DNA of 64,000 nt from Paraspadella gotoi. Taxonomy: Eukaryota; Animalia; Chaetognatha. Of this stretch, positions 15,016 to 57,900 are shown in pieces. The DNA is taken from assembly GCA_051294375.1 (NCBI GenBank), contig CM119263.1:9912432-9976431 (forward strand). Reading direction: 5' to 3'. Below the pieces are notes generated by a model. The model did no database searches and was not told where the DNA came from. It saw only the letters and a list, made by a program, of their open reading frames with translations. The number at the start of each line of letters is the position of its first letter. The first letter of the stretch is position 1. A program made the position numbers and the translations under genes.

Positions 15016-15252
15016 TGTGGAAGACGATGCCGCGAGCAGTTTAGCGTCCGTTGCACACAAGGTCCCGAACTTCGGATCGGGCTGTAGTCCGACACTACAG
15101 GTGGGTTAGACGCCCCGTCCCGCTTTTACTTGTGTGAATCAGCAGGGCGCGAACCCGAGTCCTTTGGGTTGGGAGGACATCGTGCTACCTCCGGCGCCAT
15201 AGGTGCTGCTGATTCTCGGACGAGTAGCAGGGTATGAAATACTACCGCTACA
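15016..15252 (-). mobile_element. Solo LTR, family D (diverged relative of family A)
   Basis: TG...CA termini, CAAC TSD, tRNA-like A/B boxes (TGGCGCCGGAGG, GGTTCGCGCCC), twister-like fold at 15054-15136. Confidence 0.85.
15054..15136 (-). ncRNA. Twister-like ribozyme in family D solo LTR
   Basis: Same layout as family A with compensatory changes in P3, P4, P5 and T2 (AC:GT); predicted cleavage 15108/15107. Confidence 0.75.
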
Positions 15253-21760: not shown

Positions 21761-22479
21761 CTTATTCTTTAGGATTTTTTTAACTTGCATCATTTTTCTT
21801 CTTGCATCATTTTTCAACCTGCATATTTTTTTTAAATTGCATCATTTTTTCACATTAATATAATTAATTAAAAACATTTATTAGTAACATAATAAATAAA
21901 GATTCAAGTAAATGTGACTTATGTTTTTTCCATTTAAACTCATTTCCACTCGTACATTTCCACCGAAACTTTATATCAAGCATCGATACACATTTTTCTA
22001 CCCACACAAAAATTTGAACTCAATAAGTAAAAAATATTAGTAAATGCGACTTATGTTTTTCTCACTTACTCCTTTCCATTCCACACGATTCCGTCGAAAC
22101 TTTATATCCAGCTTAATCACACACTTTCCTACCCAAACAAAATTTCATTCATCAATCCAACCACAATCACTGTATTGGAGCTTTTTGCTAGTGGGACGGA
22201 TGGACGGATTGATGACTGATTAATTAAATTATGATTAATTAATTGACTAATTGATTAATTAACTGATTAATTATTTGATTTATTAATACATCCTGCATAT
22301 ACATTTAATATAAAAGGAAAAAGAATCATAATCAATTAGTGAACAGGTTTTTTTTCCATTTAAACTCATTTCCATCCAAAAGATTCCATCGAAACTTGGT
22401 TTCCTGTTCAATCACACACTTTTCCTACTCACATGTACAAAATTCAGGTCAATCGATAATTAAGTGTGAATAAGCTAAC

Positions 22480-24516: not shown

Positions 24517-25172
24517 TGAAGAGACAGTAATTATTGTTATGTGTTAATGACAGAACCGTTCAATATAAGCAGTCCCTGAGCTTTGGATCAGGTTGTAACA
24601 CCGTGTTACAGGCGGGTTAAGCGCCCCGTCCCTCTTAACTGCTAGGCGGCCACCGGGCTAGAACCCCGGACCTTTGGGTTAGGAGGCGATTGACTTGCCT
24701 CTGGCACCAATGGCTGCTGATGAACGGTTGGTGGATTTTAGTCCACCATACATCCTCCCCTCCCGTAGGGAGAAGTCTGTTGCGTCTCTTCAGTGTATTG
24801 TTGTTGTTGGTGGAATGTTCGTCACCAAGTTGAGGCATGTTGCCTGATGTGTTGTTGTCGGAAAGTGCATCGCCAGGTTGAGGGATGTCGCCTGAAAGTG
24901 TTGTTGCTGCTGTTGTGTTTGGAAGTCAGGCTCACCAATGAAGAGACAGTAATTATTGTTATGTGTTAATGACAGAACCGTTCAATATAAGCAGTCACTG
25001 AGCTTCGGATCAGGCTGTAACACCGTGTTACAGGCGGGTTAAGCGCCCCGTCCCTCTTAATTGCTAGGTGACCACCGGGCTAGAACCCCGGACCTTTGGG
25101 TTGGGAGGCGATTGACTTGCCTCCGGCACCAATGGCTGCTAATGAACGGTTGGTGGATTTTAGTCCACCATA
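24517..25172 (-). mobile_element. Complete TRIM, family A (LTR contains tRNA-like head plus twister-like ribozyme)
   Basis: Two 234-bp direct repeats (24517-24750, 24939-25172), 188-bp internal part, PBS TGGTGAGCCTGAC, PPT GGGAGGGGAGGA, CCAT TSD on both sides. Confidence 0.92.
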
Positions 25173-38689: not shown

Positions 38690-40120
38690 TCAATATTTTA
38701 ATACTTCAGAATCGAAATATTTATGAGGCTCTGCAACGGAGTTTTGATCCGGTTTTTCTGCCAATATTCCTTCAAGTAAAGGATCTGCATTCGATTCAGG
38801 CCCTCCTTCAAGTGGAGAATCTAGTTTTGAAGTTTTTGCTTCGCATGAGAAAAAACCAACATCACTGATGTCATTAGGCTGAGGAATCAAGCCTGTTTTT
38901 GTTTTTTTTCCACTTAAAGATTCCGTCGAAGGTGCCGAGTCGTCTAAAGGAGAACAATTCGCGAAATACGGCTCTACGTTGGGTCCAGAATCCAATGTAG
39001 GAACAGGAGCACCTTCAAGTGAAGTCTTTCTTTCAATTTGACAATTTCGATTGGTTTCTTCTAAATCGATTGAATGGTCTTTTATCGTTGTTGGCTTCGC
39101 ATCAATTTTTAATTCAAGCTCTTTGTCCAGTAATAATAAACTGGATTTTGAAACGAGCTCGGTTTCTTTCTTGAGAGGAGAATTTTTATTAACCTCCGAA
39201 ATTTCCTCGTATTGAGAATCCAGTTTGGATTCCGTACTGACATATGCAGCATTCATTGTAGTTACCATAATTGATTTGTTTTCGGAATCCATAAAAAAAT
39301 TTTCCTTCATATTAAAAACTTCTGGGACTTCAAAGTTTTGTAATTCAAATTTAGTTTTTACTTCTTTAAAAGAATCATCAGTTCCAGGACAATTTAAAAT
39401 GTCGTTTAAATTAGTTGGAGATGACATCGCAAGTGACTGAGCGTTCACCTTAGATTCTGTTACTTCTAATAAAATATCTAATGCAGGGGTTAGCACAAAA
39501 TCTGATGCAATATCTTTCTTGGATTCTTCGTCACAAAAAAAATTTAAATGGGAGTCTGAGGAATCCATGCTTTTCGATTTGGGATTCTGAAAAACTTCAG
39601 ATTGATTAGTAGCTTCAGAAGCCAACTCTGCAGCTTCTTTGAAGCTTCGGTCCCGCCTGAGAGAAGAATCATTCTTACAATCTAGTTTACTAATTATATT
39701 GCTTTCTGTTTCATACACCAAATTAACTCCCAGTAAGTGATCAGCCCCCCCAGATTGAGATTGTATGTTGCCTGGAGCTCGCTTATGCAAGTCATTTAAT
39801 ACCAACTCTGGTTTCTCTATAATTTTTACCATTGCCTCATCAGAAATAACCGCGCAGTGGGAAATGTGCTTAGGTTCTTCAGTCAAATTCAAATTTTCTT
39901 CCTTTAAACACGATTGTATTGTATCTTCTGAAAGCGGGACGTCCTCGAAGTCTACAGGGACTGCTGCCAAAATAGTTTCTTCTGAAATTTGAGAATCGGA
40001 CATCTCGATTTTCATTGAATCCACGCTCGCGTCGCCCGATATTTGCTGAGGGCAGCTTTCTTCAACGAAAGTTGGAGGTGAAGTTTCCTTCATCATATCT
40101 TCAGTTTCATTTTTAGCCAC
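38690..40120 (-). CDS. DPY30-domain (DYDC1/2-like) protein, exon 2: long acidic low-complexity tail
   Basis: 476-codon open frame starting directly after tttttAG (40121-40122), in phase with exon 1; E/S/D/K-rich; TGA at 38690-38692. A donor just before the stop cannot be excluded. Confidence 0.8.
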   Translation of the reverse strand: MAKNETEDMMKETSPPTFVEESCPQQISGDASVDSMKIEMSDSQISEETILAAVPVDFEDVPLSEDTIQSCLKEENLNLTEEPKHISHCAVISDEAMVKIIEKPELVLNDLHKRAPGNIQSQSGGADHLLGVNLVYETESNIISKLDCKNDSSLRRDRSFKEAAELASEATNQSEVFQNPKSKSMDSSDSHLNFFCDEESKKDIASDFVLTPALDILLEVTESKVNAQSLAMSSPTNLNDILNCPGTDDSFKEVKTKFELQNFEVPEVFNMKENFFMDSENKSIMVTTMNAAYVSTESKLDSQYEEISEVNKNSPLKKETELVSKSSLLLLDKELELKIDAKPTTIKDHSIDLEETNRNCQIERKTSLEGAPVPTLDSGPNVEPYFANCSPLDDSAPSTESLSGKKTKTGLIPQPNDISDVGFFSCEAKTSKLDSPLEGGPESNADPLLEGILAEKPDQNSVAEPHKYFDSEVLKY

Positions 40121-42417: not shown

Positions 42418-43444
42418 TTTTAGTCGGATCTGCTTATCAGCAGATTCCGACTCTATAATTCACTTTGTCGGTCCGTCGGTCCCACCCAAAAATATTGTCG
42501 GTAAATCATTATTATCATGATATTATTATTATTATTATTATTATGATAAATTATGCAAAATGTCCGTCCATCCATCTGTCCATCCCCCCTTAGCAAAAAA
42601 CTCCAATTATTCGTGATTGGATAGATGGATTGGTATGAAATTTTGTGTGTGGGTAAGAAACTGTGTGATTGAGATGGATATGAAGTTTCGATGGAATCGT
42701 GCAAGTAGAAATTGGTTTAAATGGAAAAAACAAAAAAATCTATTTTATTATTTGAACGCCAATTGCTCAATGCTCATGAGTGGATAGGGCAATTGACTTA
42801 AAATTTTGTATGATGGTAGGAAAGTGTGTGATTGAGCTGGATATAAAGTTTCGGTGGAATCGTGCTAGTGGAAATGAGTTAAAATGGAAAAAACAAAAGT
42901 CATTTTTACTTGAAGTATTTTTACTTAAATTTATTCATAATTATTATTTTTATTAAAAATTAGTAAGATAAATTGAAATTGAATTTTGTGTATGGGTAGG
43001 AAAGTATAAGATAAAGCTGGATATAAATTTTTTGATGGAATCGTAGGAGTGGAAAAGAGTTCAAATTAAAAAACCAAAAGATATATTTATTTGAATTTTT
43101 TAAAGTTTATCTTTCTCTATCTCTCTCTGATTGATTGATTGATTGACCAAATTATGCCAATTGATAAAAATATGCCAGTTGACCAAATTCTGCATATTGA
43201 CCAAATTATGCCTGTTGTCCAAATTATGCTAGTTAACCAAATTATTCCGGTTAACCAAATTATTTTAATTGACCAAATTATGTCAGTTGAACAAATTATA
43301 TCAGTTAAACAAATTAAATCAGTTGACCAAATTATGTCAGTTAACCAAATTATATCAGTTAACCAAATTATGCAAGTTGACCAAATTAGCTCATTACCAC
43401 TTAATTATCATAAGCAGATCCAATATTGTTTGCTCAAATTTGTT
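42418..43444 (-). mobile_element. Shorter DINE/Helentron-like copy (others at ~11420-12170, ~18162-19345, ~55570-57472)
   Basis: Same terminal hairpin and gcagatcc...tgtttgctcaaa end, in reverse orientation. Confidence 0.7.
43140..43390. repeat. 18-bp minisatellite (tgaccaaattatgccagt)
   Basis: Tandem units; explains the spurious periodic ORFs 43139-43453 and 43269-43472. Confidence 0.9.
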
Positions 43445-45524: not shown

Positions 45525-46210
45525 TGTGGATAAGGCGCTAAGTGGGCTGAAGAAGACTATCCATAACTTCTATAACCCCCTCTAGCAGACATGGAAGGGT
45601 CCAGGGCTTGGAACCAGGCTTGAGGGTTTGCCACGCCCCCAAGGCGGCTTAGGGACATCCTCAAACTTCCCGCAGGGTAGGTACCGGGTTGGGATTGAAC
45701 CGGGACCTAGTGGTCATGAGCTGATGGCTTTACTCAATGAGCCACCGGGTCACAACTGAAAGAGTCATGCTTATAGGCGGGTGAACCTAGGAAATGCCGA
45801 CTACATGCCCCCCCAGATTGTAACCCACCCTGCACTGCTTCCAGTGGAGGGAGGGGAGCAATCTTCAGCACGTCCATGGGCCTGGAATCAGAAGGTTGGA
45901 ATACGCTCGACAGGATGGGCTCACCAGTGTGGATAAGGCGCTAAGTGGGCTGAAGATGACTATCCATAACTTCTATAACCCCCTTTAGTAGCCATGGAAC
46001 GGGTCCTGGGCTTGGAACCAGGCTTGAGGGTTTGCCACGCCCCAAGGCGGCTTACGGCCGTCCTCACTCTTCCCGCACGGTAGGTACGCGGTTGGGATTG
46101 AACCCGGTACCTTGTGGTCATGAGCTGATGGCTTTACTCAATGAGCCACCGGGTCACAACTGAAAGAGTCATGCTTATAGGGGTGTGAACCTAGGCAATG
46201 CCCGACTACA
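45525..46210 (-). mobile_element. Complete TRIM, family B
   Basis: LTRs 45525-45805 and 45928-46210 (TG...CA), 122-bp internal part, PBS TGGTGAGCCCATC, G-run PPT, TTTA TSD; tRNA-like head (TGGCTCATTGAG ... GGTTCAATCCC). Confidence 0.92.
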
Positions 46211-49368: not shown

Positions 49369-49604
49369 TGTGGAGGTATATTCACACCGCCTCACATCCA
49401 CCATCGTTAAGCCAATCCCATTGGCTCAGAGGGGGAACACACCATCCCAAGCGTTGTGTTCCATCCACAGTCCTAACGTCTTCCCTGTGTTGGCAAAGCG
49501 AGACCGTCCTCGGGTAACCGCGCCAGGGGTGCCACTGAGGGTCGGAAGCCCCTAAAACCAACAGTGAGATGCCCCATCCCAATGGGCAGCCCGGCTGTGC
49601 CAAA
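49369..49604 (+). mobile_element. Solo LTR, TRIM family C
   Basis: Colinear with 56777-57032; imperfect TSD ATAC/GTAC. Confidence 0.85.
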
Positions 49605-50803: not shown

Positions 50804-51450
50804 CTGATGTCTCCGTTGTCGTCTTTAGGGGCCGATCGTGGGAGTAGCTTTAACTTGGGTCTGGCCGCGGCCTCTTCCGCCGTAGGTTCTCGTAAATCGT
50901 CGAAGTTTGCTCCCCTGCCGCTCTCCCTTCTCGGTCTACCCCCAGATCCCCGACTGAAACCCCCACCACTTCCTCCGGATTCCCTCCTAGCTCGGTTTTC
51001 CCCCGTAGGCCCGCGTCCGCCAAAATTTCCCCGAGTTCCGCCCCCACGATAGTTTTCCCTGCTTCCGTAGCCGCCTCCTCCGAAACCTCTGCTACCGCCG
51101 AAATCGTCTCTGATCGATGGCATGTCTCTCCCCTGCGAGCCACCACGATCTTCGAATCCCACAGGGGGGCCGCCAGGCGGAGATCGGTAGTCTCTGTCGC
51201 CAACCATAGGGGGACCACCAACGGCACCGCGTCCGCCGCCTATACCACGGCTACCGCCGCGGCCGGCCACCCCGGGACCTCGCTGATCCTTACGTCCTTC
51301 GGCAACGTCGACGCGGATGTTCTTGTCTTCGAAGAGTGCGCCGTCGAAAGAGAGGGCATCTTTCAAAGATTCTCGAGTATCGAACTCCACGTAACAAAAT
51401 CCCTTGAACTTGTCCGTATCACGATCTCGCACCAGCCGGACGTTTTTAAC
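50804..51450 (-). CDS. EIF4H: eIF4H exon 5: RRM second half, RGG-rich region, [10 protein letters not shown] motif
   Basis: [23 protein letters not shown] (RNP1) ... [10 protein letters not shown] ... [12 protein letters not shown]; ctgcAG acceptor, GTtggt donor. Confidence 0.95.
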
Positions 51451-52004
51451 CTGCAGAAAAACATTCGGATTTAACTTCCTTGAGGGGTATTGAAGACGTG
51501 AAGAAATAGAGGGAAAATAATGGTATATTTCGCGAAGAGTAGAAACGAGAGAATGTATCGCAAGACAAAATATACTGACGGGCGGGAGGAGGAGGAAAGA
51601 AGAGGAAGAGGAGAATTGGACGGCAGGCTAAATCCTCCTCTGACTTCAAATTTTAATTAAAATTGAATGAGAACAAGTTTGAGCAAACAATGCCTCATCT
51701 GTTCACGATAATTTAGCGGTAAATAGCTAATCAGATAATGAACTAATTATTCAAATAATTATTTAATAATTAATAACTATTATAATTTCTAATATTTAAT
51801 GAGTTAAGCATCAGCAGAAGATTAATTAATTAATCATCCGATCGATTACATTATTCAATTACAGTAATTAAGGGTTACCTTTACTTTCACCGACCGGGGT
51901 GAGGGAGGGGTGAGGGAGGGATTAGGGTGAAGAGTGGTTTAAGTGTAGTTTAGGGTTAGGGGTAGTTAAGGGTGGTTAAGGGTTATATCTTTTAAAATTT
52001 TTTG

Positions 52005-52181
52005 CTACGCCCCCAAGGCGGCTTAGGGACATCCTCAAACTTCCCGCAGGGTAGGTACCGGGTTGGGATTGAACCCGGTACCTAGTGGTCATGAGCTGAT
52101 GGCTTTACTCAATGAGCCACCGGGTCACGACTGAAGGTGTCATGCTTAGAGGCGGGGTGAACTTTGCTATGCCCGACTACC
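52005..52181 (-). mobile_element. TRIM family B LTR fragment
   Basis: Near-identical to 45630-45805; truncated inside ribozyme P3. Confidence 0.8.
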
Positions 52182-53510
52182 ATATCATTAATATAATGAT
52201 TTATTAATAACTGTGGAATTGAACTCGGTTCTTCCCATTCACGGTCGATCCCCGACATCTCGTAACCAATTCGGATTGATATAAATGATATTAATTTCAC
52301 TTATATTAGAGCCAAACTTCGTCAATGGGGTGGGTCAGAAGTTTGATTTGGGAACCTTTCCAAATGAAACTTCATACATTTCTGAGAAAACTTTCAATGG
52401 AGCAAAATTTTCTAAAATGGCAAGAAGCATTAGTAATTAATTTTTTAATATTTATTTATAGATAGGAAATGTCAAAAAATTTTTTTGGAATTTTTTATTT
52501 TTAAAAGCAGATTCAAATAGCTTATGAAAAGTTATCTACACAAAGTATAATTCTTTTTTAAATATTTTGATGATAAGTGGGTTAAAATTGAGAAAAACCT
52601 TAAAAAATCATCATTATCATCCAATAATTTTAGCAGTTTTTACTAATTTTTAGTAATAAAACATCAAAATTTTAAAAATTGTAATTATATTTTTTGATTA
52701 ACTTTTTAAGCTCTATCAGAATCAATTAAAAAAACCTAAAATATCCCAAAAAAATTTTTAACATTATATACGATATAATAATATTAATTAGCGAATTACT
52801 CATGGTTCGGAACATTTTTGCAAAAAAATATTTTAACACAATAATTAATACCAATAATGGATTAGTTTAATGCTGTTCCCATTAAAATTTGAATTTGGTC
52901 GGCTACCGCTACTTATATAAACCCTTATATAAATTCTCTCTATATACAAATTGACCTTTTGTTATTATCAAACAAAAGAGCATTTTTATTTGAATTAACC
53001 AGCTGATTCCATTAAACATAATTCCATTGTTATTTCATCAAGCTTAGAAAGCACTTTAAATTGTTTAGAGGAAAAATTAACAGACTCACATACTTGTTAT
53101 CAATTTTCCCTTTTTCTTGTTAATGTTTATTTTAATTGCAATCGTTTAATTAATTAATTAATTATTGTTATTGTATTGATATAGATATTTTGATTGCTTG
53201 CTGGTATAAGCATTTGATTATTTTATTAAGGTACCATTTTACAAGCGAACCAAGCAAGTTGGTTTAATAAACTTTTTATCCAAGCAAAAATAAACAATCT
53301 CAACGCCACGAGCGCCAACGCGAGCGACATCGCCACTTCCGGTTGACGCTCCTGTGGTAACATCTACATAACTACAATAACCACTATGCATAATTCTTCA
53401 ATTAATCAATTATCTAATTACTTTCGCTTTTATTTATATTTTACTCCTTGCCCATTCGCGAGTGACCCCAATTAATCTTTACTATACTTTTAATATTTAA
53501 TAAACATTAA

Positions 53511-55828: not shown

Positions 55829-56287
55829 TATGGTGGACCAAAATCCACCAACGTTCATCAGCGGCCATTGGTGCCGGAGGCAAGTCATTCGCCTCCCAAC
55901 CCAAAGGTCCGGGGTTCTAGCCCGGTGGTCGCCTAGCAATTAAGAGGGACGGGGCGCTTAACCCGCCTGTAACGCGGTGTTACAGCCTGATCCGAAGCTC
56001 AGGGACTGCTTATATTGAACGGTTCTGTCACTAACACAACAATAATTACTGTCTCTTTATTGGTGAGCCCGACTTCCGAACACAACAGCAACAACAACAC
56101 TTTCAGGCGACATGCCTCAACCTGGCGATGCACTTTCCTTCAACAATACATCAGGCGACATGCCTCAACTTGGTGACGAACTTTCCACCAACAACAAGAA
56201 TTCACTGAAGAGACGCAACAGATATCTCCTTATCTGCTTATATTGAACGGTTCTGTCACTAACACAACAATAATTACTGTCTCTTCA
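55829..56287 (+). mobile_element. TRIM family A copy, 3' LTR mostly deleted
   Basis: Full 5' LTR 55829-56059, PBS TGGTGAGCCCGAC at 56061, internal region, last ~55 bp of 3' LTR; ATAG TSD. Confidence 0.88.
55935..56010 (+). ncRNA. Twister-like ribozyme (P5 permutation) in family A LTR
   Basis: AGCAATT-AA-GAGG-GA-CGGG-GCGCT-TAA-CCC-GC-CTGTAAC/GTTACAG-CCTGA-TCCG-AAGC-TCAGG-GACTGCT; pseudoknots T1 TCCG:CGGG and T2 GC:GC; predicted cleavage 55959/55960. Confidence 0.75.
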
Positions 56288-56326
56288 ATAGATTAATTAA
56301 TTGAATAATTATTTTAATTAATGTAG

Positions 56327-57032
56327 TGTGGCGGTATATTCACACCGCCTCACGTCCACTCATGCCTTCAGCCAAATCCATTGGCTCAGAGGGGAACACA
56401 CCATCCCAGGCGTAGTGTTCCATCCACAGTCCTAACGACTTCCTCTGCATTGGCAAAGCGAGACCGTCCTAGGGTAACCGCGCAGTGACTGAAGCCGTCA
56501 CTGAGGGTCGGAAGCCCCCAAAGCCAACAGTGAGATGCCCCATCCCAATGGGCATCACAGGCAACCCGGCTGTTGCCATAAGTGGTGAGCCCTACTATCG
56601 AACACGCAACCTTCTCAGGGTACGCTATGACAAACGCCTATGCCCCTGGGGTACGCTACGACAAACGCCTATGCCCCCACAACTCGCGCTCTCTCTCTCT
56701 CTCCCACTATGGTAACAGTCTTGTCAGACACCTCTCAGGCTTGAGGAACCTGAGTGATGTCTTGACCCGGGGATCCTGTGGCGGTATATTCACACCGCCT
56801 CACGTCCACCATCCTTCAGCCAAATCCATTGGCTCAGAGGGGGAACACACCATCCCAGGCGTAGTGTTCCATCCACAGTCCTAACGACTTCCCTCTGCGT
56901 TGGCAAAGCGAGACCGTCCTAGGGTAACCGCGCCAGTGACTGGAGCCGTCACTGAGGGTCGGAAGCCCCCAAAGCCAACAGTGAGATGCCCCATCCCAAT
57001 GGGCATCACAGGCAACTCCGGCTGTTGCCATA
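56327..57032 (+). mobile_element. Complete TRIM, family C
   Basis: LTRs 56327-56580 and 56777-57032, 196-bp internal part, PBS TGGTGAGCCCTAC at 56583, GTAG TSD. Confidence 0.92.
56899..56979 (+). ncRNA. Twister-like ribozyme in family C LTR (other copies at ~56449-56528 and ~49489-49562)
   Basis: GTTGGC-AAA-GCGA-GA-CCGT-CCTAGGG-TAA-CCGC-GC-CAGTGAC/GTCACTG-AGGG-TCGG-AAGC-CCCC-AAA-GCCAAC; predicted cleavage 56925/56926. Confidence 0.7.
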
Positions 57033-57900
57033 GTAGCTTGCATTTAAAACAAAAAAACAATCAAATAGTGAAACAGGTTTTTTGTTTTTTCCATTTAAAC
57101 TTATTCCATCGAAACTTGATTTCCTGCTTAATCACACACCTTCCTACTTACATTAAAAATTTCAATCAATCGCACGATCCATTTATGAGTAATTAGCGTT
57201 CAAAGCTAAGGGGGGATGGACAGACGGACGGATGAACATTTTTTGGGGCATAATTTTCTATAATTTGATGTTCTGAAATGATATAAGTGACTTACCAACT
57301 TATTTCCACTCGCATAATTCCATCGAAACTTTATACCCAGCTAAATGACACACTTTCCTACCCACACACAAAATTTCATTCCAAGTTTTTTGCTAAGGAC
57401 AGACATCGATTTTTTTTTTTTTTTTGCATAATTAGTCATAATTTGATCTGCTGTAAGCAGATCCAGCTAAAAATAACGATAATACTGATATTGCCTGAAA
57501 GTCATTATTAAGAAAAAATTTCTAGAAATTAAATTCAAAATATCGTATAATAAAGGGTGAGAACTTCGACATCGTGGTCTTGGAAAAAAGATTAAGCAAC
57601 ACAGTTCAGCACAATATGTTAACTGACAATAACATTGGGACACACTGTAAATTTGCTGCACATCTTTTAATTCTGGTTGATTTTATTTAAAAATAATTTA
57701 TATTATTTTATGTGTAAAATATTTTGTCAGTATTCCTGATTATTGATGAATGATAAATCCGTTTAAATTTTTTACGATTCTATCAAGCGAGAAAGAGTTT
57801 TTGCCTCTTGAATCTTTTTGCTTTCACGATCTTGTTAGTCCTGCGATGATATTATATAGATAGCAGTGAATGACAAAATACAGTACTTTTGTTTCCTTAC

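Follow-up and report, generated by a model that had tools for sequence, protein, structure and literature searches.

The window, that is, the whole stretch of 64 kb of Paraspadella gotoi DNA analysed here, is AT-rich (22–40% GC in most of its 1-kb bins), dense in repeats, and contains 10 N. A long, GC-rich exon on the minus strand (50804–51450), with AG and GT at its borders, codes for a protein with an RRM. The named homologues of this protein are eIF4H of animals, which places the host among the animals, but not near any of the named matches (the best matches of the protein search overall being 61% and 58%), and the spliced form is present in the contigs of a sequencing run denoted X1. An acidic open frame of 476 aa on the same strand (38690–40120) has no Pfam match, and probably represents a large exon belonging to the host. 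The window also includes an 18-bp tandem array (43107–43412), an AT-rich dispersed repeat of approximately 88–150 bp, found in at least 13 copies between positions 21937 and 63936, and short LTR elements and solo LTRs of four families, referred to here as A–D.

The element of family C is a non-coding miniature LTR element (TRIM) of 706 bp on the plus strand (56327–57032), flanked by the target site duplications (TSDs) GTAG on the left (56323–56326) and on the right (57033–57036). Its 5' LTR (56327–56580, 254 bp, with TG...TA ends) and its 3' LTR (56777–57032, 256 bp) are 96.9% alike, differing by six one-base indels and two transitions, and enclose an internal region of 196 bp (56581–56776). 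The PBS-like segment (56583–56603) starts with TGG, 2 nt past the 5' LTR, and includes TGGTGAGCC, which is common to families A and B. The polypurine tract GGGGA (56769–56773), 3 nt ahead of the 3' LTR, is weak, being a run of only five purines, much shorter than the tracts of families A and B. The interior also contains a 31-bp tandem duplication (56618–56677) and a CT run (56689–56703), and a TATA-like word is found at 56785 in the 3' LTR. The GC content of the element is 57%, and its longest ATG frames, of 85 and 65 aa, suggest that it encodes no mobilisation protein. By the definition given in PMC10886601 (less than 1 kb, two LTRs, a TSD, and a PBS-like site), this element is a TRIM, with a weak polypurine tract. 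An autonomous partner, sought as a gag-pol-sized open reading frame, and a tRNA gene were not found within the 64-kb window.

A solo LTR of the same family lies at 49369–49604 on the plus strand (89.5% identity over 229 bp), with the flanks ATAC/GTAC. The complete element begins 39 bp downstream of a family A copy (55829–56287, plus strand), which is bordered by ATAG duplications and is missing both its PPT end and approximately 179 nt from the start of the 3' LTR, the second ribozyme included. The LTR ends are non-canonical in family A (TA...CA) and family C (TG...TA), and are TG...CA in families B and D, with 4-bp duplications in all of them.

The core of the twister ribozyme is defined by a UAA with a GA opposite, a four-pair P2, a T1 in which three Watson–Crick pairs are joined by an A·A, a T2 that pairs GC with GC, and, closing L4, an invariant G–C and U·A (PMC8501958, PMC5408937). 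Each LTR of family C contains a fold of this type, on the plus strand, which, on the evidence of the sequence, is almost certainly real. In the 3' LTR (56899–56979), where all the pairs were checked against the sequence, the fold is composed of P5 (56899–56904/56974–56979), P2 (56908–56910/56929–56931), the GA that is catalytic in twister (56912–56913), T1 (56914–56916/56960–56962), the P1 segment (56917–56924), the UAA (56925–56927), T2 (56932–56933/56965–56966, GC:GC), P3 (56934–56954), and P4 (56956–56958/56967–56969). The invariant G–C and the U·A that close L4 are present (L4 region, 56958–56967), as are A56913 and A56963 for the A·A. In the 5' LTR, the fold spans 56449–56528, with five pairs and an A·C in P5, three pairs and a C·A in P2, six pairs in P3, three in P4, three in T1, and two in T2. 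Twister chemistry would place cleavage at U56475/A56476 in the 5' LTR and at U56925/A56926 in the 3' LTR. These predicted sites and their spacing of 450 nt, together with the limits of the element, the motif string, and its identity as a TRIM with two LTRs, had been proposed in an earlier, sequence-only reading, and all were recovered.

Some details of this reading require adjustment. The P5 helix described as GTTGGC/GCCAAC is a perfect 6-bp helix in the 3' LTR, but the 5' LTR has ATTGGC, which leaves an A·C at the end. The mismatch reported in P2 is real: the four-nucleotide spacing is kept, but with only three pairs and a C·A (C56928·A56911) beside the active site, in all three copies in the window. 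The mismatch reported in T1, by contrast, disappears, because the U of L4, which pairs with the A of L4, had been counted as a T1 base; T1 has three pairs, CCG/CGG, all of them Watson–Crick (C–G, C–G, and G–C). P4 in the 3' LTR comprises the invariant G–C and two further G–C pairs, followed by an outer A·C, a position that is A–U in the solo LTR and in approximately 5% of the X1 depth. The P1 segment could form a hairpin of U·G and C–G around a 4-nt loop, yet is predicted to be unpaired; the P1 of twister is dispensable in vitro (PMC5408937).

The Rfam models recognize little of this fold. Within a 121-nt stretch, the sole match is that of twister-P1 to the 3' half of the 3'-LTR fold, at 15.3 bits (gathering threshold, 67.2) and an E-value of 0.66, and the twister models found no match over the whole 64-kb window at E-values of up to 1, and none at the gathering level. 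The twister P5 and P3 models did not match family C, and the twister search was also negative in families A and D; family B has a partial twister-P5 match (E = 0.12), and the twister E-values overall range from 0.12 to 2.5. Only the 3' half is seen as twister-P1 because the strand ends of this fold lie inside the 6-bp P5, between P4 and P2, and P3 is retained. The type-P5 twister (RF02684; PMC5408937) shares with family C the termini in P5, the UAA, the GA, T1, T2, and the L4 signature, whereas family C keeps a P3 of 6–7 bp, where RF02684 shows an internal loop over the 58 positions that matched, and also differs in the C·A of P2, a palindromic P1, and the lack of a gathering-level Rfam match. 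Because P2 departs from the four pairs of the definition and the score is below the Rfam threshold, the fold is referred to here as a twister-type variant, outside any Rfam family. Searches for hammerheads recovered neither CUGANGA nor GAAA on either strand of the element, and no Rfam hammerhead match; the other Rfam ribozymes were looked for and were not found.

The same type of core is found mid-LTR in the other three families. The family A element (24517–25172, minus strand, 656 bp, TSD ATGG) has the same core, a 6-nt palindromic P1, and a predicted monomer of 422 nt. The family B element (45525–46210, minus strand, TSD TAAA) has a predicted monomer of 403 nt, and its LTRs differ: in one of them P1 is palindromic and P2 is paired, whereas the other lacks the palindrome and has a broken P2. 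Family D is represented by a solo LTR (15016–15252, minus strand, TG...CA ends, TSD GTTG), in which T2 is AC:GU. A family B fragment at 52001–52180 (minus strand) also has neither a palindromic P1 nor a paired P2. The P2 is in fact atypical in all four families, because in A, B, and D a strand of 3 nt faces four bases, which can be read as three pairs around a bulge, and C has the C·A. This recurrence of the core contrasts with the lack of significant similarity of families B and C to family A: BLAST found no significant match of family C to A or B, the best match to A being 20 nt on the opposite strand (E = 0.034), as expected from the earlier description of little primary similarity, and no significant similarity between B and A.

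A descriptor of the fold matches the real LTR, and none of 5000 dinucleotide shuffles of this LTR. In the window, a stricter descriptor recovers seven sites, as against 0–1 in each of 20 block shuffles, and a looser one recovers 12 (eight in the GC-rich LTRs of the four families, and four in AT-rich sequence), whereas 30 shuffles gave 3.0 on average. Comparing one copy per family from A to D, six of the eight columns of T1, T2, and P4 have changed on both sides, including all three T1 pairs, and T2, from GC:GC to AC:GU in family D. The descriptor itself demands pairing in these columns, but not the double changes, and the pairs were counted by coordinate, with no covariance model, because the MAFFT alignment of family C with the other three families was wrong. 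The T1 pairs of family C, in particular, are flipped on both sides in relation to both family A and the Rfam twister-P1 consensus. That the four families share a twister-type core through compensatory change is thus supported at the level of the sequence, in agreement with the sequence-only reading.

The predicted twister-type ribozyme of family C is probably active, to judge by its sequence. It is nevertheless conceivable, albeit improbable, that the element is a mobile TRIM that has inherited the twister fold, its own ribozyme being weak or dead, and that it moves as an ordinary TRIM. This alternative would account for the C·A in P2 and the A·C in P4, and for the absence of an Rfam match at the gathering level; the review of twister structure (PMC5408937) gives P2 as four Watson–Crick pairs, and considers that an altered number of pairs is perhaps not tolerated. 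It is also consistent with the folding of the isolated 3'-LTR ribozyme, where the nested minimum free energy (MFE) structure is a competing fold that lies 9.1 kcal/mol below the twister-compatible one (P2 probability 0.02, P4 0.01, with the pseudoknots uncounted). Against it, the catalytic and pseudoknot positions are intact in all three copies of family C, including the solo LTR, which has diverged by approximately 10%, and in which P3 is remodelled and shortened, the outer A–U of P4 is restored, and the P1 centre is UC. In addition, the Rfam twister-P1 consensus writes the inner P2 pair in lower case, that is, as weakly conserved, and the T1 pairs of family C are flipped on both sides, as noted above.

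The X1 contigs extend this picture beyond the window. A contig of 1628 nt matches 50804–51452 with 0 differences and ends at splice sites, so that X1 probably derives from the RNA of this species or of one very close to it. It holds many contigs of the family C element, but also includes non-exonic sequence (53284–53460), and all of the runs consist of assembled contigs, from which the level, the strand, and the ends of an RNA cannot be read. Six contigs enter the family C LTR at 56776/7 from unlike flanks, which points to further family C insertions with the same boundary. The two differences listed at 5% or more inside 56899–56979 affect a loop base of P3 and the outer base of P4 (A·C to A–U), and one low-depth contig alters a base of the P3 stem in the 5' copy (56487). 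Family C is young, so that this invariance of the core has little power. The high summed depth of X1 was rejected as a sign of expression or copy number, given the contig format and the non-exonic sequence, and two candidates for traces of a circle were rejected because other genomic copies fit equally well, that is, the X1 joints that “go back” by 355–440 nt, and an X2 contig in which alleles of the 3'-LTR type run into the PBS.

Two further contigs have structures of their own. In X1, a contig with a depth of 141.7 contains the starts of two family C LTRs (56326/56776 and 49367) in head-to-head orientation, one on each strand, which represents either an inverted pair in the genome or an artefact of fold-back. 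In X2, which is from another study and another organism code, a 276-nt contig is approximately 97% like the LTR–PBS junction (56392–56645), and then continues into an unlike interior. Scans of metagenome and viral contigs for exact patterns returned 0 matches, these collections being poor sources of animal repeats.

Cleavage at both of the predicted sites would release a monomer, or a circle, of 450 nt (56476–56925, plus strand), which the sequence-only reading had described as highly structured. This description holds in terms of folding energy, with z-scores of −3.24 for the linear form and −2.98 for the circular form, but only 58% of the bases are paired, below the value of over 70% quoted in PMC4918200 for the putative retrozyme RNAs of metazoans, and the interior is unremarkable (z = +1.29), given that 89 of its 100 shuffles fold equally well. 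The folding signal of the monomer comes from the LTR part only. The LTR itself folds better than its shuffles (z = −3.58), and the chain of hairpins in the 3' LTR has a z-score of −4.03 upstream of the ribozyme and of −2.57 downstream. The hairpin arms AGCCAA/TTGGCT, GGAACAC/GTGTTCC, and GATGCCC/GGGCATC, listed in the earlier reading, are present in both LTRs, but CAGAGGG/CCCTCTG is perfect only in the 3' LTR, the 5' LTR having TCCTCTG, with a G·U. Between the two ends of the monomer, P5 (1.0), P3 (0.99), and P2 (0.76) are predicted to form.

Taken together, these features favour, with moderate confidence, a reading in which family C is a non-coding TRIM with a twister-type fold in each LTR, which propagates like a plant retrozyme through the predicted 450-nt circle. 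A transcript that extends across both LTRs would be cut at 56475/6 and 56925/6 by the acid–base chemistry of the G and the A, releasing the 450-nt monomer, which would have no terminal redundancy or R region. The P5-open permutation would hold the ends of the monomer together through P5 and P2, ready for a host ligase of the RtcB type; ligation by RtcB has been reported in the axolotl (PMC7229834). A tRNA would then prime at the PBS, with a reverse transcriptase and integrase of the Ty3/gypsy type supplied in trans, and copying around the circle would rebuild two LTRs, which would be inserted with a 4-bp TSD. Copying of this kind, primed by a tRNA and followed by Gypsy-type integration, has been proposed for the plant retrozymes (PMC7761336, PMC4918200), and both these retrozymes and the animal Helenus elements make 4-bp TSDs that have been ascribed to Gypsy partners (PMC10886601, PMC4918200).

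The principal alternative to this passage through a circle accepts that the ribozyme cuts, and supposes that replication follows the linear route of an ordinary TRIM, with the cutting serving in the formation of 5' or 3' ends, or in the release from host read-through. Twisters do set the 5' ends of RTE-type elements in Schistosoma (PMC8501958), the interior of family C is unstructured, and the TATA-like word at 56785 means that the LTR may carry its own promoter. The cuts would, however, fall at the same offset in both LTRs (149 of 256) and remove the terminal redundancy that is needed for strand transfer, an argument that was made for the plant retrozymes (PMC4918200), and the P5-open permutation, as modelled, would tether both ends of the monomer, so that the linear route is considered quite improbable. 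That the fold merely matches by chance, in an LTR rich in hairpins and in GC, would agree with the three or so false sites that loose descriptors return per shuffled window and with the poor Rfam E-values, but is highly improbable in the face of the 5000 LTR shuffles with no match and of a core that recurs in four families with changes on both sides in most of its columns.

The plant LTR retrozymes (PMC4918200) are the closest known counterpart of the route through a circle that is preferred here. They share with family C the lack of coding capacity, a ribozyme motif in each of the two LTRs, the PBS, the 4-bp TSD, the existence of solo LTRs, a GC content above 55%, and a monomer (predicted, in family C) without an R region; they have a PPT, of which family C has at most the weak run of five purines. 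They differ in their type III hammerhead, where family C has a twister-type fold and an animal host, and are larger, with LTRs of 300–400 bp, compared with 255 in family C, and monomers of 600–1000 nt, compared with the predicted 450. In the predicted monomer of family C, unlike those of the plants, the ribozyme is not buried in a long blocking arm, and abundant circular monomeric RNA characterizes the LTR retrozymes, whereas the circle of family C is a prediction from sequence. The metazoan non-LTR retrozymes (PMC7229834, bioRxiv 10.64898/2026.07.22.740005) share the animal host, a small unit delimited by ribozymes, and a weak palindromic helix, which in the axolotl works better as a dimer, but are tandem repeats with type I hammerheads, described explicitly as being without LTRs, PBS, or PPT, whereas LTRs, 4-bp TSDs, and a PBS-like site are all present in family C.

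Other animal retroelements resemble family C in one respect or another. In Schistosoma mansoni, the non-LTR element Perere-3 carries twister T-variants (PMC8501958), which are also twisters in an animal retroelement, but are of the P1 type and occur singly, at its 5' end, whereas family C has two, placed mid-LTR in an LTR element. The animal TRIM Helenus (PMC10886601) shares the length of less than 1 kb, the two LTRs, the PBS, the 4-bp TSD, and a proposed mobilisation of the Gypsy type, but the TRIMs of this kind have promoters derived from tRNA or 5S, with no ribozyme in the available part of that description.

As characterized in the available text of these sources, the retrozymes with LTRs belong to plants and use type III hammerheads, and those of animals lack LTRs. 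The element of family C likely works like an LTR retrozyme, while standing outside that hammerhead-defined family. Neither an LTR element with a twister inside its LTRs nor an animal LTR retrozyme was found in the literature covered, which included PMC6154101, PMC6765202, bioRxiv 2022.07.19.500677, and PMC7761336, in the parts available, and did not extend to the subscription journals, Repbase, or the supplementary twister lists, which may hold cases. If this reading is correct, the retrozyme design would have arisen or spread outside the plants, independently of the class of ribozyme, and the twister would have a second natural role in retroelements, as a natural counterpart of the engineered circularisation by tandem twisters. 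Given that the motifs escape Rfam, similar elements may sit unnoticed among the annotated animal TRIMs.

The P1 segment, whose palindromic nature the sequence-only reading had missed, offers a possible answer to the question of how such a circle escapes recutting itself. In the 5' LTR (56467–56474, plus strand), it is self-complementary at all eight positions, with G·U ends, and self-complementarity throughout the segment is found in 8 of 10 copies, spanning all four families (the exceptions being the solo family C LTR and the copy B45, with the B52 row left out of the count). The two central bases are unable to close a hairpin, but would pair in a duplex, although the chance of this is 0.34 for two random bases, so that the agreement of three or four families is no more than suggestive. 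When the whole element is modelled, a double core in which the LTRs swap strands through an 8-bp P1 duplex has a predicted energy of −244.1 kcal/mol, compared with −237.1 for two cis cores with P1 free and −233.3 with P1 hairpins, and lies 11.4 kcal/mol above the MFE of the precursor (−255.5). In the stretch 56440–56990, the corresponding values are −186.5 for the swapped core and −176.1 and −172.3 kcal/mol for the cis cores, and the swapped double core of family C is thus predicted to be 7–14 kcal/mol more stable than two separate cores. In unconstrained folds, the P1 duplex between the LTRs has a probability of 0.33 and 0.64 in family C, and of 0 in families A and B; the advantage of the swapped core in family A is 3.3 kcal/mol. 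The axolotl hammerheads, which have a weak palindromic helix, cleave far better as dimers (PMC7229834). It is plausible, though at somewhat less than even confidence, that the P1 segments of the two LTRs pair together, as in these models, such that cutting would be more efficient in a two-LTR precursor than in a solo LTR or in the circle once formed. The broader proposal, that at least four animal families of LTR-type retrozymes use the twister as a P1-swapped double ribozyme, with only two-LTR transcripts being cut, and the solo LTRs and the 450-nt circle being spared, is more speculative, and is regarded as rather unlikely.

The primer binding sites provide a further observation. The PBS segments at 56583, 56061, 24937 (minus strand), and 45926 (minus strand), which belong to three unrelated families, all share TGGTGAGCC, and in three of these four copies a CGA(A/G)C box lies approximately 16–21 nt into the segment, where it could extend the pairing to the T-loop of the tRNA.
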